A DNA stretch of 64,000 nt from an uncultured archaeon (lineage in GTDB: Archaea > Hadarchaeota > Hadarchaeia > Hadarchaeales > WYZ-LMO6): assembly GCA_938074535.1 (NCBI GenBank), contig CALJER010000003.1:1-64000 (forward strand). The letters run 5' to 3'. Made by a program: the position numbers and the translations under genes. The notes below the pieces were generated by a model that saw nothing but the letters and a program-made list of their open reading frames with translations, had not been told where the DNA came from and made no database searches. Positions 18,247 to 25,814 of the stretch are shown here, piece after piece. Each line of letters opens with the position of its first letter. Position 1 is the first letter of the stretch.

Positions 18247-18634
18247 GCCGGTCCGAAGGCCTTCCCTGGATTTTGGGAAAAGGGAGCAAAAAATCGGCAC
18301 AGGACACAGGTCCGGAGGGTCGAGAAGGGTTCGGGCGGTTAGTGCCGGTGGGCTGAGCACCTCGCCCTTTCGGGCTCGATGCGTACACCCCCGGTCTATC
18401 AACGGGGTCTTCTAGCCCCAGCCCTTCGCCTCCCGCCCCTTTCGGAGCGGAAGGACACGGTGCCTGTTTTCGGGGGTCGCTTCGGCCTTAGATGCTTTCA
18501 GGCCTTATCGACTGGCGCGTGGCTACCCGGCGATGCCCTGTCGGACAACCGGTACACTAGAGGCGCCGGCGTCCCGTTCCTCTCGTACTAGGGACACCTT
18601 CCCCTCAGGCACCGAGCACCCCCGAAAGATAGCA

Positions 18635-18676
<42 letters not shown>

Positions 18677-18743
18677 TTTTGATGGGCGAACAACCCCACC
18701 CTTGGCCGCTTATGCACGGCCAGGATAGGAAGAACCGACATCG

Positions 18744-19514
18744 CAGAGCTCTGGCTCCGGACTATTTCTCCACCCCGCTCTCCGCGGGGGCCGACGTGTG
18801 TCGGGACGCACCTGCGCCCCGACTCATCTGCCTTCCGGCATCAGTCTCTACGGGGTGGGAAGCTTGTAAGAGAACTCGGGCAGAACGTGGGGCCGGACCA
18901 GCTCCAGGAACCTCCCGTTGCACCTCTTGAGGAGGCGCAGCCTGTGGCACTCGCCGTCCCTGTTCAGGTTGGCTATGAGGTAGAACCTGCGGAGCGCCCT
19001 GATCAGTCTGAACTGCTCCTCCACGCCGAACGCCTGGGTGTTGAAGTAGACGGCGTTCCTCGAGAGGCTGCCTCTGTCCATGAACCAGACCGCGAGGGCG
19101 AAGGGAGTCAGCATCTTCCCTATTCCCTCCGGAACGGTCTTCCTTCCGCCCCTGTAGAACTCCAGGTAGAGTCTGTCCAGCTCAGGATGGGTCCTCGTGA
19201 CGAGCTCGCAGCACTCCTTCCCGTTGCGGTGGTAGCTTCCCGGGCGGGCAAGGTCTCCCAGCATCCTGCGCTTCCATTCCACGTAGAAGGCCCTCCTGGA
19301 ACTCTGCGAGAACTCGAACACCACCTTGTTCCCTTGCTTCCGCAGGTGCCCGTCTCCGAGCAGCGAGCCTATCAGCAGCTCCCTCTGGGTCTCCGTGAGT
19401 TCCATCTTCCCACTTCCCTCGGAGTCACCCCCTTTATTCCCTTCCCCGCGGGGGGCTTCTCCGATATCAGTCGGTGCTCTGGCCGGCATTGCTGCCGCCA
19501 TACCCCAAAGGCTG
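18744..19514 (-). mobile_element. Group I intron in 23S at E. coli-equivalent 2500 (IA-like, extra P7.1/P7.2 stems)
   Basis: 5' exon ends UACCU and pairs with IGS GGGUA; terminal G before CGAUGUC; R element GUAGAGACUG; S element GAAAUAGUCC. Confidence 0.92.
18848..19405 (-). CDS. Intron-encoded double-motif LAGLIDADG endonuclease (second motif degenerate)
   Basis: LIGSLLGDGHL and LAVWFMDRGSL; the TAG stop lies inside the R element. Confidence 0.88.
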   Translation of the reverse strand: MELTETQRELLIGSLLGDGHLRKQGNKVVFEFSQSSRRAFYVEWKRRMLGDLARPGSYHRNGKECCELVTRTHPELDRLYLEFYRGGRKTVPEGIGKMLTPFALAVWFMDRGSLSRNAVYFNTQAFGVEEQFRLIRALRRFYLIANLNRDGECHRLRLLKRCNGRFLELVRPHVLPEFSYKLPTP

Positions 19515-20034
19515 AGGTAGCAAACCGCGGGGTCGATATGGACTCTCGCCCGCGACCACTCTGTTATCCCCGGGGTACCTTTTCTGTCATCCGGAGCCCT
19601 CACCAAGAGGGACATCCGGGTTCGCTAGGCCCGGCTTTCGCCCCTGCGCGCCTTGGTAGTGAGCGCGCAGTCAGACCGGCTTTTGGCCTTGTCCTTGGCG
19701 GCGGAGTTCTGACCCGCCTAAGCCGATCTTTGGACCCCCTCGATATCCTTTCGAGGGGCTGCCGCCCCAGCGAAACTGCCCACCTGCCGTTGTTCCCCTG
19801 GCGGGGTTAGGGGCGTGGTCGTGGATGGGCGGTGTTACATCGGCGCCTCCACCGGGCCCGAAGACCCGGCTTCGAAGGCTCCCGCCTACCCTCTGCACCC
19901 GCAACCGCGTCCCAGCGACAGGCTGCAGTAAAGGTCCACGGGGTCTTCGTTTCCCTTCGGGGGACCCCGGCATGTTCGCCGGCAAGCGGGTTCACCGGGT
20001 TCCAGGTCGGGACAGTGGGGGACTCGTTGATTCC

Positions 20035-20066
<32 letters not shown>

Positions 20067-20081
20067 TTACGCTACCTTAAG

Positions 20082-20921
20082 CTCCCCTTCTTCAGGGGTG
20101 GACCATATCATCGCACCGTTTCCCGGTGCGCCTGGCGTATGGTCTCTGAGGATCTCCCTTCACGAGCCCATCCAGCTTCTTCATCTTCTCCGGGTGTCTG
20201 AAGCCCACGGTTTCTCTGAACTTTTGGACCCGCTCCAAACCTTTTATGACAAGTGAGAACTGGGGGTTTTTCCCCCACGCCCTGGGTTTCTTGACCCAAA
20301 CCGTGCTTTCGATCCCGAGCTGCTCAAGGATTTCCTGGAGCTGTTTTATCAGCGGCTTGGCGATCATATCGATTCCCACGTAGGGATGGGCGTACGCCCT
20401 TCCTCCGTGCACCTCTCTGTCGGCTCCGCAGTAGCCCTCCGCATCGAAGAGCCCTTTGGCGACCTCCAGCCTGGAGCCGGCGTCCACCGCGAACATCCTG
20501 GGTATCCTGAGGGTCGTGAGCTTCCTGCCCTTCGGATACCCGAGTTCGATGAGGAAGTCGTGCACGTCCCTGCGGTTGGTGCTGGCCACCCAGCGGTTCG
20601 GTGAAGCTCTGCTGATTCTGGGTTTGAAGCCGAAGATCCTTTCCACTCTCTCCGCCACCATCTTCACGAACTCCTCGCTCCCGTCCCTGCAGAACACCGT
20701 GTAGGAGCTTCCGTAGACGCCCCCATCGCCGAGCATCACTCCCACGAGGTAAGCCAGGGACTCCGCCATCGCTGTGTTTAAGAGGGACTCTGTATAAATC
20801 AGGGGCTTGCTCAGGGATTTCCTGCGGGTCGACCACATCCTTCCGGGCTCTGTTACCCTTCCGGGTGTCCCGGGCTTCCGGTCTTCCCCGCATACAGCCA
20901 GGTTTTACAACCCCCTTCCCG
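20082..20921 (-). mobile_element. Group I intron in 23S at E. coli-equivalent 1923 (IB-like)
   Basis: 5' exon AACCCU pairs with GGGGUU; terminal G before CUUAAGG; R UCAGAGACCAUA and S GAUAUGGUCC with compensatory P7; P3 CCUGGC/GCCAGG. Confidence 0.92.
20092..20769 (-). CDS. Intron-encoded double-motif LAGLIDADG endonuclease (intein/DOD-like)
   Basis: LAYLVGVMLGDGG and VAKGLFDAEGY; FRETVGFRHPEK; ORF reads through the P7/P8 core. Confidence 0.88.
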   Translation of the reverse strand: MAESLAYLVGVMLGDGGVYGSSYTVFCRDGSEEFVKMVAERVERIFGFKPRISRASPNRWVASTNRRDVHDFLIELGYPKGRKLTTLRIPRMFAVDAGSRLEVAKGLFDAEGYCGADREVHGGRAYAHPYVGIDMIAKPLIKQLQEILEQLGIESTVWVKKPRAWGKNPQFSLVIKGLERVQKFRETVGFRHPEKMKKLDGLVKGDPQRPYARRTGKRCDDMVHP

Positions 20922-23061
20922 AGGGTTATAGTTACCCCCGCCCATTGGCGGCGCTTCGACCGGTTGGGCCCGGCTTTCACGTACCGCCTGTAGGCAGAAT
21001 TCAGCTCCCGTACTCACCCTTTCGGGCTAGCGGGAACCTACGTTTTTATTAAACAGTCGGTCCCCCCTGGTCACTGCGACCTGCCCTCCGCAGGGCAGGC
21101 ACCCCTTCTCCCGAAGTTACGGGGCCAACTTGCCGAATTCCCTGACCTGGTGTCTCCCGTCACGCCTTAGGCTTCTCACCTAGGGGCACCTGTGTCGGAT
21201 CTAGGTACGGTCACCCAGGGTCCCATTTCCGGTTCCCCTTTTCACGGGCCCCGGAGATGAACCGAACCCGCCTAACGGCAGGCCCATCCCGCCCTCCTCC
21301 GGTTCTCTCCATTACGGAACTCCCCGGACTTCGACGGTTGGATGGAGCGACGACCCCACTCGGTCTGCCCCGAGGCGTCGGAGAACCGGCCTGCGTTGCC
21401 GCGGGTACCTGGGTGGTTCCGGAATATTAACCGGATTCCCTTTCGATGGCCTCTGGTTGAGGGCCACCTCAGGACCGACTAACCCTCGGCTGACGACCAT
21501 TGCCGAGGAACCCGGGCCCCTTCGGCGGTGGGGATTCTCACCCCACTAGGCTGTTACTACCACCAGGATCCTCATTCCCACGCGGTCCACCCGACCTCAC
21601 GGCCGGGCTTCTCCCCACGCGGGACGCCCTCCTACCGGATCAGGCTACTCAGCTTCGCCTGCCCCGGGGTCTCGGCAGCTGGCTTGAGCCCCGTCCATCT
21701 TCGGTGCCCCCACCCTCGACGGGTCCGCTTTTACGCGTTGTTTAAAGGATGGCTGCTTCTGAGCCTACCTCCCCGCTGTTTCAGGGTGGAGACGCCCTTT
21801 GGATTTCTGCACTTAGCCAGCATTTGGGGGCCTTAACCCCGGTCTGGGTTGTTCCCCTCTCGGAGCGGGAGCTTACCCCCCGCACCCCGTCTCCGGCGGT
21901 CTACGGCGCCGACCGCTTCGGAGTTCGACAGCGAGGGCAAGGGTTTCCCCCTGTCACCCCGCAATCGGTGCTCTACACGGCCGGCAGCCTCGCGCCGGGC
22001 CTGACTGCGGCCAGCTTCGGAGGGAACCAGCTGTCACCGGGCTTGATGGGTCTTTCGCCACTAGCCCAGGGTCATCCGACCGAATTGCACATCAAGACCG
22101 GTTCGGCCCTCCACCCCACAGAGGGGCTTCAGCCTGCCCTGGACTAGATCGCCCGGTTTCGGGTCTCACCGCCGTGACTCCGGGCGCTGTTAACACCCCG
22201 TCCCTCGCCCTTTCGGGCTGCGGACCGTTGCTTTCGCTGCGGCTCCGGGGTTCCAACCCCTTAACCTCGCCACGACGGTGAACTCCCTGGCCCGTGATTC
22301 AAGACGGACGGTACGACCCCGATCCCCCTCCCTCGTACCACCGCCTCGCGACGGCTTCCTTCGGGAGGGATCAGCTCTTTCGGGCCGTACCTTACTGTCG
22401 CCACCTGGTTTCAGGCTCTTTTCACCCCCCTTCCGGGGTGCTTTTCAGCTTTCCCTCGCGGTACTGCGTCCGCTATCGGTCTCGAGACGTATTTAGGGTT
22501 GGGAGTTGGTGCCTCCCGGCTTCGGACGCCAATCCCGAGGCGCCCTACTCAGGATCCCTCCCCTCGTATCCTGCACAGTTGCCCCTACGGGGCTTTCACC
22601 CTCTCCGGCGCGCCTTTCCAGGCGACTTCGGGTTCCCGTGCGAGGAATTGGAGGAGGTCCTGCAACCCCACATCCCCGACGGCTTTCGCCGCCGGGTTCG
22701 GTTTGCCCTGTGCCCTCTTCACTCGCCGTTACTGAGGGCATCGCTCTTGCTTTCTCTTCCTCCCGGTACTGAGATGTTTCACTTCCCGGGGTTCCCGTTC
22801 GCAGCCCTCTGAGGAGCCGCGAACGCAGGGGGTCAACCCCCCTGCGGGATTCCCATTCGGTCATCCCGGGTTCTAAGGCTGCCTGCGCCTCGCCCGGGCT
22901 TTTCGCAGCTTGCCACGACCTTCTTCGGCGCTCGAGCCGAGCCATCCCCCAGGTGGCTTGGTTCCCCGCTCGACGGCTTCCGGACCTGTGCCTGGCCTCA
23001 TCAGCTCTTTTGAGCCTGAGCCCTTCGCGCGAAGAGCGCTCCCTCTCCCCGCGCTGCATCC

Positions 23062-23136
23062 TGGTGGACCCGCCGGGACTCGAACCCGGGACCTTCGGCT
23101 TGCAAAGCCGACGCTCTACCGCTGAGCTACGGGCCC
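23062..23136 (-). tRNA. tRNA-Ala(UGC) in the 16S-23S spacer, CCA encoded
   Basis: GGGCCCG..UAGCUCAG..GGCU UUGCAA GCC..GUUCGAGUC..CGGGUCCACCA; G3:U70 pair. Confidence 0.97.
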
Positions 23137-23182
23137 AAGAGAAGTCCGGGCCTCCGCCGGATATATACGTAGGAGGTGATCG

Positions 23183-23221
<39 letters not shown>

Positions 23222-23291
23222 CCCCAGTCGTCCACCCCGCAAACGACGCCCCCAACCTGGAAGCGCCTATTGCGGAGCGAACTTCCGTGGC

Positions 23292-23334
<43 letters not shown>

Positions 23335-23751
23335 GGATAGTGGCCCGCGATTACTAGGGATTCCACCTTCACGAGGGCGAGTTTCAGCCCTCGATCCGAA
23401 CTAAGCGCGGGTTTAGGGGATTGGCTCCCCCTTACGGGGTGGCATCCCATTGTCCCGCGCATTGTGACCCGCGTGTAGCCCAGGAGTTTCGGGGCATACG
23501 GACCTACCGTCGCCCTCTCCTTCCTCTGGCTTAGCGCCAGCGGTCTCCCTAGAGTGCCCGGCTCTCCCACCGATGGCAACTAGGGACGAGGGTCTCGCTC
23601 GTTGCCTCACTTAAGAGGACGCCTCACGGTACGAGCTGACGACGGCCATGCACCACCTCTCAGCTAGTCGAGCAAGGTCTTCAGCCTGGCCTTCATCCAG
23701 CTGTCTCCCCTGGTGAGTTGTCCGGCGTTGAATCCAATTGAACCGCAGGTC

Positions 23752-23794
<43 letters not shown>

Positions 23795-23907
23795 CCTTGC
23801 GGCCGTACTCCCCAGGCGGCGGGCTTAACGGCTTCCCTCCGACACTGGGAGCCCTCGAGGGACTCCCAACATCTGGCCCGCATCCTTTACTGCTGGGACT
23901 ACCGGGG

Positions 23908-24630
23908 TCAGGGACCCTCACGTTGCCGTGAGGCCTGGACTATGTCTTCATCTGAGATAGCGAACTTGACGAGCCCTGCTATCTCAGATGCCCAGCGTTG
24001 GCGTGATGAGGGCTTGCGGTAGAGGAGAATCTTTCGCTTCATGCACTCCGGCACGAAAGGGGCTATGAGCTTCAGGAAGCTCTTGGTCTCGTTGGTGGAA
24101 CGCAGCCAGAGCCTGTATCTCCCCGTCCCCCTTTTTGCCGGGGCTATCCTGAAGTGCAGCCCCCACACCTTCAGGAAGTACCTCCTGGCGACCCTCACCT
24201 CCCGCGGGGAAAAGCTGTCGGTGCAGAGAACTGCCTGTGTCCTGTTCCTGACCAGGCTTCCGTCGTCAAGCCACCAGACGCAGAGACCGAGGGGGCGGAG
24301 CTGGTTGAGCCATTTCCTCCTCACCCCCTTAGAGATTAGCTCGAAGATCTCGAGGAGCTTTGGACTGGCCGAACTCACGTAGACCGCTTTTCTCCTGCCT
24401 TTGGACGCGGCGTCCTGCACTTCCACGATCCTTCCCCCCAGCTCCTTCAGGAGGAAGCCCGCCTTCCACTCCAGGTACTCCTTTTGCTCGGCGCCGTGCC
24501 TGATCACGAGCCTTGGATGGGCGTATCCTCTGTACTTCCTGAGGGATCCGTCTCCCAGCAGGGTTCCGAGGATCACCTGTTTCGCCTCCTCCGACAAAGG
24601 GGCGGGCTGCCCCTTCTGTCCGGCCCTCAT
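23908..24630 (-). CDS. Intron-encoded double-motif LAGLIDADG homing endonuclease
   Basis: ILGTLLGDGSL and LCVWWLDDGSL both intact; EYLEWK, LCTDSFS motifs. Confidence 0.9.
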   Translation of the reverse strand: MRAGQKGQPAPLSEEAKQVILGTLLGDGSLRKYRGYAHPRLVIRHGAEQKEYLEWKAGFLLKELGGRIVEVQDAASKGRRKAVYVSSASPKLLEIFELISKGVRRKWLNQLRPLGLCVWWLDDGSLVRNRTQAVLCTDSFSPREVRVARRYFLKVWGLHFRIAPAKRGTGRYRLWLRSTNETKSFLKLIAPFVPECMKRKILLYRKPSSRQRWASEIAGLVKFAISDEDIVQASRQREGP

Positions 24631-24784
24631 CACTAGTCTCTACGGGGTCGGGAGTATTTACCCCCGACTTCCCTCGGCGTTACCCCTGTGGGGCTTCGCC
24701 GATACAGCTGGGTCGCAGCGGAACCTAGGGCCGATTCCGCTGCTTACACCCTGCCGTCGCCGGCAGGGGAGACACCTTTGAGGT
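23909..24784 (-). mobile_element. Group I intron in 16S at E. coli-equivalent 793 (IA-like, ORF in the P7.1 loop)
   Basis: 5' exon AGAU pairs with GUCU; terminal G before ACCCCGG; R GUAGAGACUA; S AAGACAUAGUCC; P3 CCCAGC/GCUGGG; 13-bp P8. Confidence 0.92.
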
Positions 24785-25814
24785 ATCTAATCCCGTTCGC
24801 TCCCCCAGCCTTCGCCCCTCACCGTCGGGTCCGTTCTCGTCCGGCGCCTTCGCTACGGGTGGTCCTCCGAGGATCAACGCATTTCACCGCTACCCCCGGA
24901 GTACCCCGGACGTCTCCCGGCCCCAAGACCGGTAGTTTCCCCCGCAAGCCGAACCGTTGGGCGGTCCGATTTCACGGGGGACTTGCCGGACCGGCTACGA
25001 GCGCTTTAGGCCCAATAATCGCGACCACCACTTGGGCTGCTGGTATTACCGCGGCGGCTGGCACCAGCCTTGCCCAGCCCTTATTCCCGGAGCTTTTTAC
25101 ACTCCGGAAAAACCGCCGATCGTGAGACCAGCGGCACTGGGGGTTCCCCCGTCACGCTTTCGCGCATTGCGGAGTTTTCGCGCCTGCTGCACCCCGTAGG
25201 GCCTGGGGCCTTGTCTCAGTCCCCATCTCCGGGCTCCGACTCCCATCGCCCGTACCCGTCGTAGGCTTGGTGGTCCGTTACACCACCAACTACCTGATAG
25301 GCCGCAGTCCCATCCTCGGGCGCCGTGGCTTTCAGTGAGGGCGCCTTCCAGCCTCCCTCACCTATGGGGTATTATCCTCAGTTTCCCGAGGTTATCCCCC
25401 ACCCGAGGGTAGGTTGACCACGTGTTACTGAGCCTTGCGCGGGGCCACGGTCAGAGACCGCGCCCTCCACTTGCATGGCTTAGCCGAACCCCCACAGCAG
25501 TGGCCTCCGGCAGGATCAACCGGAGTTAGGGTGGCCGCAAGTGCCTTGGCGGAGGCCTCGGACCTCTCTCGGACCCGAACTCTCCAGTGGCCTGGGTTTT
25601 TCGGGCCCACATGCTGATTCCACACCCGGAACCCGACCCCTCATCGCTGGTCAAACACCGGCTCCCGGCCGACGCCTTTCTTCAGGGGTGTGGAGCCAAT
25701 ATTATATGGGGATGAAGGCTTACTTAAGGCTTGTCCTTGGGGGGACGGCCACCCCCTTCGGCTTTCTCCCCTTAAGGACGGGCTCTTTATCCTTCAGGGG
25801 GAAAAAGAAGGGAG

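Follow-up and report, generated by a model that had tools for sequence, protein, structure and literature searches.

A homing-endonuclease stop codon that straddles the 3' splice site of a group I intron in an archaeal 16S rRNA gene

The 16S rRNA gene of a Hadesarchaeon, a hot-spring archaeon, holds an intron whose endonuclease gene ends on a UGA codon made of the last two bases of the intron and the first base of the following exon. This arrangement raises the question of whether the stop is a selected device that couples the end of translation to splicing or a by-product of a protein-coding sequence and a ribozyme sharing the same nucleotides. An earlier note on this DNA had favored the first reading, with termination that depends on the splicing state of the RNA. 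The locus was examined in a window of 64,000 nt, by which we mean the whole stretch of DNA that was analyzed. The genome to which it belongs (G000) comprises 1.2 Mb in 53 contigs and is 93.6% complete, and G004 is a relative of the same genus. The window carries an rRNA operon (Table 1) in which both the 16S and the 23S rRNA genes are interrupted, since each is far longer than its model.

Table 1. Positions in the 64,000-nt window of the rRNA genes, the introns, the ribozyme elements, and the endonuclease reading frames
Feature	Position	Strand	Basis or remark
rRNA operon, archaeal type		-	16S, tRNA-Ala(UGC), 23S
16S rRNA gene	23171..25526	-	2356 nt against a 1478-position model
tRNA-Ala(UGC)	23062..23136	-	
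23S rRNA gene	18321..22973	-	4653 nt against a 2987-position model
Group I intron, 876 nt	23909..24784	-	SSU model, intron-less alleles, P1/omega-G rules
P1	24770..24788	-	exon AGAU (24788-24785) and intron ACC(U) with guide (A)GGUGUCU (24777-24770)
P2 hairpin, GCGA tetraloop	24749..24768	-	100% of cells paired; 7/8 pairs changed on both sides
P2.1 hairpin	24715..24743	-	two compensatory pair changes, window vs G004
P3 5' strand, CCCAGC	24707..24712	-	95% of cells paired
P4-P5	24701-24675	-	5/10 pairs changed on both sides
P6	24668-24647	-	3/4 pairs changed on both sides
P7 5' strand, GACUA	24634..24638	-	inside the invariant motif CCGUAGAGACUA
P3 3' strand, GCUGGG	23991..23996	-	within codons of the protein motif RW(A)SE
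P8 hairpin	23952..23987	-	codons read ...SEIAGLVKFAIS...
J8/7 AUGAAGACA and P7 3' strand UAGUC	23938..23951	-	codons GAU GAA GAC AUA GUC
P9 hairpin, GCAA tetraloop	23916..23933	-	7/7 pairs covary
LAGLIDADG_2 homing-endonuclease ORF	23908..24633	-	241 aa from GUG24633
Stop codon UGA	23908..23910	-	U23910 and omega-G23909 (intron), A23908 (exon)
Second group I intron, ~771 nt, LSU 2499/2500	18744-19514	-	direct reading and 16S-intron model
Third endonuclease ORF, 248 aa	20092-20838	-	within the 23S gene; LAGLIDADG_3, E 4.4e-15

The 16S intron and its boundaries

The sequence across the two ends of the intron is ...GAUUAGAU/ACCUCAAAGG...CCCUG/ACCCCGG, where the slashes mark the splice sites; in order, the exon ends ...GGGAUUAGAU, the intron reads ACCUCAAAGG...GGGUCCCUG, and the next exon begins ACCCCGGUAGUCC. 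Because ACC stands at both ends, alignment alone fixes the intron only to within 3 nt. The rules for group I introns choose a 5' splice site after U24785, which places the end of the intron at G23909, the omega-G. In P1 (AGAU/ACC with GGUGUCU), exon U24785 lies opposite a G of the guide sequence, the wobble pair at the splice site being U24785.G24773, and such a U.G pair is present at the 5' splice site of all 18 introns aligned. The terminal intron base is G in 48 of the 55 distinct introns of the family. The uninterrupted site, GGATTAGATACCCCGGTAGTC, was found in one genome of the same genus (G002) and one of the same family (G005), and a search of the window's own genome for an intron-less 16S copy found none. 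With the U.G pair, a covarying core, and the intron-less alleles in agreement, the splice sites stand as the earlier note had placed them, including the omega-G at 23909 and an A as the first nucleotide of the intron (24784). Its choice of S793 as the insertion site was likewise borne out by the SSU model, the intron-less alleles, and the P1 and omega-G rules; we take the insertion point to be U793/A794 of 16S rRNA in E. coli numbering, as counted from the region of the 785F/806R primers.

The 18 full-length introns were used to score a hand-drawn secondary structure. Across the alignment, 94.3% of the cells pair, as against 32-38% after a shift of the partners by 1-3 columns, both sides are changed in 25 of the 53 pairs, and none of 500 shuffles matched the observed pairing or covariation. 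In P1, the flanking G-C, A-U, and A-U pairs are present in 18/18 introns and one pair covaries (C-G in 8, U-A in 6); the GGU of the guide also pairs with the exon ACC at 23908-23906 to form P10. One pair of P3 covaries, from U-A in 12 introns to C-G in 6. P7 is invariant in 18/18 introns and hence offers no evidence of covariation, being consistent with the structure but uninformative. P2.1 is specific to the clade of the window and is lacking in the bacterial relatives. The Rfam group I model (RF00028) matched at 31.3 bits (E 6.1e-6), under its gathering threshold of 50 bits, over P3', P8, the J8/7-P7' sequence AUGAAGACAUAGUCC, and P9; it aligns to the 3' half only, because the ORF splits the core. 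Judged by sequence and covariation, the 876-nt insertion is a group I intron.

An alternative is that the insertion is an archaeal bulge-helix-bulge (BHB) intron, or that the splice sites are slid by 1-3 nt, either of which would leave the whole UGA inside the intron. The ACC repeat leaves just such a 3-nt ambiguity in the alignment, and most archaeal rRNA introns with LAGLIDADG genes are of the BHB type according to Nawrocki, Jones & Eddy (2018; PMC6125680). When the possible arrangements were examined, however, only 1 of 64 had a central helix of 4 bp, with 0/3 outer and 0/3 inner flanking pairs, and the BHB candidate was rejected. The same intron family also occurs in bacteria, and slid sites would have to be squared with the covarying group I core, the constant U.G pair, and the prevailing terminal G. 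We regard this alternative as scarcely credible, and the earlier assignment to group I rather than BHB holds.

Assembled contigs from four sequencing runs were compared. A joint that skips exactly 876 nt (within the 3-nt ambiguity) was present in 4 and 10 contigs of two runs labeled metatranscriptomic and missing from both DNA runs, with sides of 27-30 nt at a 90% likeness cut-off. As the sides are short and intron-less relatives give the same joint, we read it only as consistent with splicing. Contigs that bridge both unspliced junctions exist in the same two RNA-labeled runs, in which exon depth lies far above intron depth, a difference to be discounted, as contig depth is unsuited to ranking one part of a gene against another. 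The back-joint expected of a circle was absent from the listed contig joints of the four runs, and since contigs drop rare forms this does not speak against a circle.

The endonuclease gene and its overlap with the ribozyme

The intron gene sits between the 5' strand of P7 and the 3' strand of P3. Apart from GUG24633, from which the start lies 1 nt past the last base of the P7 5' strand, alternative starts are AUG24630, which lies 4 nt past that base and is conserved in the clade, and a UUG taken by gene callers that yields 229 aa. The product matched Pfam LAGLIDADG_2 over residues 18-181 (E 4.1e-23) and has two LAGLIDADG-type motifs, LLGDGSL and WLDDGSL; D28, G29, D123, and G125 are invariant across 28 sequences. 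A profile of the endonuclease family matched PDB 6x1j, a "probable intron-encoded endonuclease 1", at E 4.2e-10 and I-SceI (PDB 1r7m) at ~9e-7, over profile positions 2-204; both of these proteins are monomeric with two LAGLIDADG motifs. By its sequence, then, the ORF product is a two-motif homing endonuclease of the I-SceI type. Purifying selection acts on the ORF body (pN/pS 0.19-0.22), and a decayed pseudogene, considered as a candidate, was ruled out by this ratio of ~0.2. Cleavage of the intron-less allele is predicted on the indirect grounds of presence/absence polymorphism within the genus and the same low pN/pS.

The last ~30 codons double as the 3' core of the ribozyme, namely P3', P8, J8/7, P7', and P9. 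The protein motif RW.SE is invariant in 28/28 homologues, and the invariant nucleotides that encode it belong to P3' and the beginning of P8. Synonymous divergence between clade members is 0.05-0.23 in this tail versus 0.35-0.45 in the body, which suggests that the tail is under RNA constraint. The ribozyme-encoded C-terminal tail falls outside the match to I-SceI, which stops at profile position 204 of 249. An AlphaFold2 model of the protein (mean pLDDT 86.6) has helices in the tail at residues 208-219 and 228-236 with pLDDT of 68-82 and a last residue of low confidence; given this moderate confidence, the extension may matter to the protein.

At the end of the frame, T23910 G23909 A23908 can be read directly from the DNA as the stop codon. 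As the earlier note had observed, the codon is split by the 3' splice site, which would leave the linear intron without a stop once it is excised, and a full-length circle would rebuild UGA because the first intron nucleotide is an A.

The position of the stop across the intron family

Homologues of the endonuclease numbered 449 at E<=1e-3, and 80 metagenome loci were retrieved, nearly all of which sit at the same 16S site as the intron of the window. Among 84 sequences (83 loci and the window), 69 had the 3' exon motif and 67 had both an ORF and a junction, giving 58 distinct introns; the 15 sequences dropped had no downstream motif, either because their contigs were truncated or because the site had diverged. 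The ORF stops in J8/7 in 37 of the distinct introns, in P7' in 5, in P9 in 7, and at the junction in 4. The introns were then sorted by the frame in which they read AUAGUC. Frame 1 holds 37 introns, which stop on a UGA 4 nt before the motif (23) or a UAA 7 nt before it (14), and frame 2 holds 8, of which 5 stop on the UAG within P7'. None of the 12 introns in frame 0 stops in the core: 4 end on a UAG in P9, 3 on a UAA in the P9 tetraloop, 4 on the junction UGA, and 1 on a UAA placed 1 nt before the omega-G. One of the 58 introns had no scorable P7' motif. The junction UGA serves as the stop in the window, L002, L011, and L013, and the 51 distinct introns outside the clade of the window, as well as the copy in the Hadarchaeota genome G018, have a stop that is wholly intronic. 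The junction triplet is UGA in 43 of the 58 introns and the first intron base is A in 55/55; since both are present whatever the ORF frame, the UG/A junction and the A at position 1 belong to the RNA family as a whole.

The ends of some family members differ. At the metagenome loci L018, L021, L027, L034, L068, L082, L086, and others, many bacterial members start with AAAUCC or AGAUCC right after the exon GGGAUUAGAU; these bases pair with exon sequence that precedes the splice site, leaving no G available to form a U.G pair. Seven distinct introns appear to end in A and not in G. In these introns AUAGUC lies ~85 nt from the 3' end.

The clade of the window consists of seven distinct introns that are 82-99% identical. 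A tree of 8 sequences grouped them as (WIN,(L008,L009)) and ((L002,L011),(L012,L013)), where WIN is the window and one node is weak (0.099). In L008, L009, and L012, the P9 loop is GUAA in place of GCAA, which brings an in-frame UAA five codons early. This loop UAA is found in both halves of the tree, in 3 of the 7 distinct introns, and the early stop appears to have arisen in both subclades. The early-stop genes L008 and L012 have pN/pS of 0.19 and 0.22, and L002 and L011 have 0.20, suggesting that the early-stop genes are under the same purifying selection as the others. At the protein level, cluster P0004 ends ...QASR, five residues short of P0001, P0002, P0003, P0005, and P0006, which end QREGP, QREGS, QREMP, or QRGGS. 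As a counterpoint, the junction stop seems to have persisted within the clade, with GCAA as the likely ancestral loop, given 4 distinct DNAs and 5 protein clusters at 90% identity. On these sequences, the junction stop does not clearly exceed what chance would give. L013 also has tandem duplications, at ~1360-1470 and 1830-1870, of the 5' part of the ribozyme (P2.1-P6) and of a short stretch of the ORF; these break the reading frame and reflect an assembly artefact or a decaying copy.

If the straddling stop were a selected device, proper termination would occur only on the precursor or the full-length circle, the intron excised as linear RNA would be a message that lacks a stop, and expression would be gated by splicing. 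The sequence facts on which this reading draws do hold, the arrangement is kept in 4/7 distinct clade members and 5/6 close protein clusters, and the authors of a study of the sea-anemone mitochondrial intron COI-884 suggest that circularization, by way of full-length circles, may modulate endonuclease expression (PMC8146996). Against it, both subclades acquired the early UAA with no relaxation of selection, the ORFs of G018, G035, and every bacterial relative have their stop within the intron, the UG/A junction and initial A are found in all ORF frames alike, and the ACC identity of the two ends is explained by P1 and P10. We consider a selected device very unlikely. The more specific idea that the choice between splicing and circle formation sets the dose of endonuclease, with the spliced message being a non-stop RNA cleared by rescue, seems to us highly improbable; if true, a selfish gene lodged in an essential, single-copy rRNA gene would carry its own dose control. 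The check that the earlier note proposed, whether homologous S793 introns keep the arrangement, was run, and the arrangement was found in 4/7 introns of the clade and 0/51 others. Its view of splicing-state-dependent termination as a meaningful arrangement thus fails its own test, because the homologues have internal stops.

In our judgment, the locus is most likely a group I intron with an ORF in its core whose frame happens to be stop-free, and the straddling stop is a dual-coding by-product and not a selected switch. Under this explanation, the intron at 16S 793/794 is a mobile one of group I whose core is IA3-like and which carries an I-SceI-type (LAGLIDADG_2) gene. Most ORFs of the family end in the conserved J8/7-P7' segment, on a UGA or UAA in J8/7 or the UAG in P7'. 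The lineage of the window reads that segment in the third frame (GAU GAA GAC AUA GUC), which holds no stop, so the ORF runs on to the next one in frame, the UGA formed by the penultimate U of the intron, the omega-G, and exon A794. All three letters of this codon would be dictated by needs of the RNA. Intron nucleotides 1-3 equal exon nucleotides 1-3 (ACC) because the guide GGU pairs with both, in P1 and in P10, a reading backed by the P1 pairing counts in the 18 introns. The straddling stop and its rebuilding in a circle would therefore both be by-products of dual coding. The protein is probably made from RNA that retains the 3' exon, for example the nascent precursor, on which the stop is whole. 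Since the ORF both begins and ends within the catalytic core, a given molecule could either be translated or fold as a ribozyme, but not both.

The stop could also be supplied by a separate transcript that starts inside the intron, such as a leaderless mRNA from the TATA-like L6 loop UAAAUA. Such a transcript would have no P1-P6, so it could not splice and would keep the 3' exon; the stop would therefore always be whole, and splicing state would be irrelevant. The loop (24655-24660) lies 22-27 nt upstream of the GUG/AUG start (24630-24633), and in this G+C-rich intron it stays A/T-rich across the clade (UAAAUA, UAAAAUA, UAAUAA). AUG24630 is kept in 6/6 clade sequences compared, no strong Shine-Dalgarno-like sequence was found before it in the clade alignment, and the bacterial relatives have AAGGAG upstream of the AUG where the window reads GGG. 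L6 loops are, however, A/U-rich in the bacterial relatives too, and the transcript is postulated from spacing only; we think this origin of the message very unlikely. The distance from L6 to the start is similar to the one at which an archaeal TATA box precedes a leaderless message.

Related introns and their hosts

A second group I intron interrupts the 23S rRNA gene (Table 1). When its boundaries are slid by one base, the 5' exon ends in U and the intron in G, and the model of the 16S intron matched its 5' part at 19387-19528 with 32 bits. The Rfam group I model gave no match on the LSU gene at E<0.1, despite the group I intron found there with the 16S-intron model and by direct reading. The start of the LAGLIDADG_2 ORF of this intron is uncertain; the domain begins at ~19384, and the longest frame spans 18848-19615. 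The stop codon of this ORF is the UAG within the conserved CCGUAGAGACU motif (J6/7-P7), and the LSU intron thus appears to behave like the 16S intron in having an endonuclease ORF that ends on a core triplet. The third endonuclease ORF, also within the 23S gene, presumably sits in another intron, of group I or BHB type.

Group I introns in CPR 16S rRNA genes are reportedly treated by Brown et al. (2015), a work cited within Tsurumaki et al. (2024), and introns in the 16S rRNA of giant sulfur bacteria, at a site named "S795", are said to have been described by Salman et al. (2012) and to be linked to the S793 family. Group I introns with LAGLIDADG_2 genes occur at several 16S sites of CPR/Patescibacteria, including sites named 16IS4-7, for which the main text gives no site numbers (Tsurumaki et al. 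2024; PMC11270868); the S793 family could correspond to one of these. The intron of the window resembles the CPR introns in its 16S site and its core motifs CCGUAGAGACUA and GAUAUAGUCC, in an endonuclease that is 40-47% identical, and in an ORF that enters the 3' core. It differs from them in its archaeal host, short P8, and extra P2.1, in an ORF that starts just past P7 and reads J8/7-P7' in another frame, and in the junction stop. In the set of Nawrocki, Jones & Eddy (2018), archaeal group I introns number 39 and lie at LSU 1923, 1931, 2500, and 2593 and SSU 1498; they are likewise LAGLIDADG-bearing introns in archaeal rRNA genes from metagenomes, and none of the 39 is at SSU 793 (PMC6125680). 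Two IA3 introns of that set (LSU/2500) come from Hadesarchaea assemblies (PMC6125680), and the LSU gene of the window has an intron at the same 2500 site, which is probably of this IA3 LSU/2500 type.

The sea-anemone intron COI-884 is similarly almost all coding, with an endonuclease ORF that overlaps the ribozyme, and differs in that its ORF continues in frame from the upstream exon and lies in a P8 extension, its stop is a wholly intronic UAG, and the system is organellar (PMC8146996). Endonuclease ORFs can extend into the group I core (Hausner, Hafez & Edgell 2014; PMC3984707), and in those cases, as here, overlap with core helices implies competition between translation and folding. Here, unlike in those cases, the ORF has its start as well as its end in the core, and an exon base forms part of the stop. 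The td/I-TevI system of phage T4 is a case of an endonuclease ORF that reaches into a group I core. BHB rRNA introns of the I-DmoI type are similar in that the host is archaeal, a LAGLIDADG gene takes up most of the intron, and a circular intron RNA has been invoked; the present intron differs in having no BHB motif and splicing as a ribozyme. A literature search found nothing bearing on the statement of the earlier note that circularization supplies the stop of I-DmoI, and a junction-straddling stop was described for none of the papers listed in searches on group I introns, homing endonucleases, and intron circles or on Hadesarchaea introns.

When a covariance model of the 5' half of the intron was run on 66 Hadarchaeota genomes, many of which may lack rRNA genes, strong matches at the 16S site were found in 4/66 (G000, G004, G018, and G035). 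The ORF of G035 stops at the UAG in P7' and that of G018 at the UGA in J8/7. Host domain was assigned by 16S signature motifs, which left 42 of 64 loci without an assignment. A bacterial signature was found at 15 loci, and archaeal signatures flank solely the clade of the window, G035, and G018. The S793 intron family thus appears to be large and mostly bacterial, with host domain unassigned for 42/64 loci. In a midpoint-rooted FastTree of 53 endonucleases, the clade of the window is on a long branch, and G018 and G035 nest among bacterial sequences, in a tree with no support values and an arbitrary rooting; this hints at transfer between domains, the direction of which the tree does not show. 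On the bacterial contig of L047 (L047:3681), a second GUAGAGACUA core motif lies ~2.2 kb downstream of the 16S intron, which suggests another intron of the same type in the neighboring rRNA gene.

The regulatory idea behind the appeal of the straddling stop is unsupported. For annotation, the locus means that a stop codon split by a splice site can be a legitimate end for ORFs of this kind. Dual coding is plain here: ~30 codons are also ribozyme core, the protein motif RW.SE is P3'/P8, and the end of the protein is set by which frame crosses a conserved RNA motif. What is new is the archaeal host and the site of an intron-endonuclease family that was already known: SSU 793/794 joins the archaeal group I intron sites, which in the 2018 survey were SSU 1498 and four in the LSU, and one family of intron and endonuclease spans at least two Hadarchaeota lineages as well as ultrasmall bacteria.
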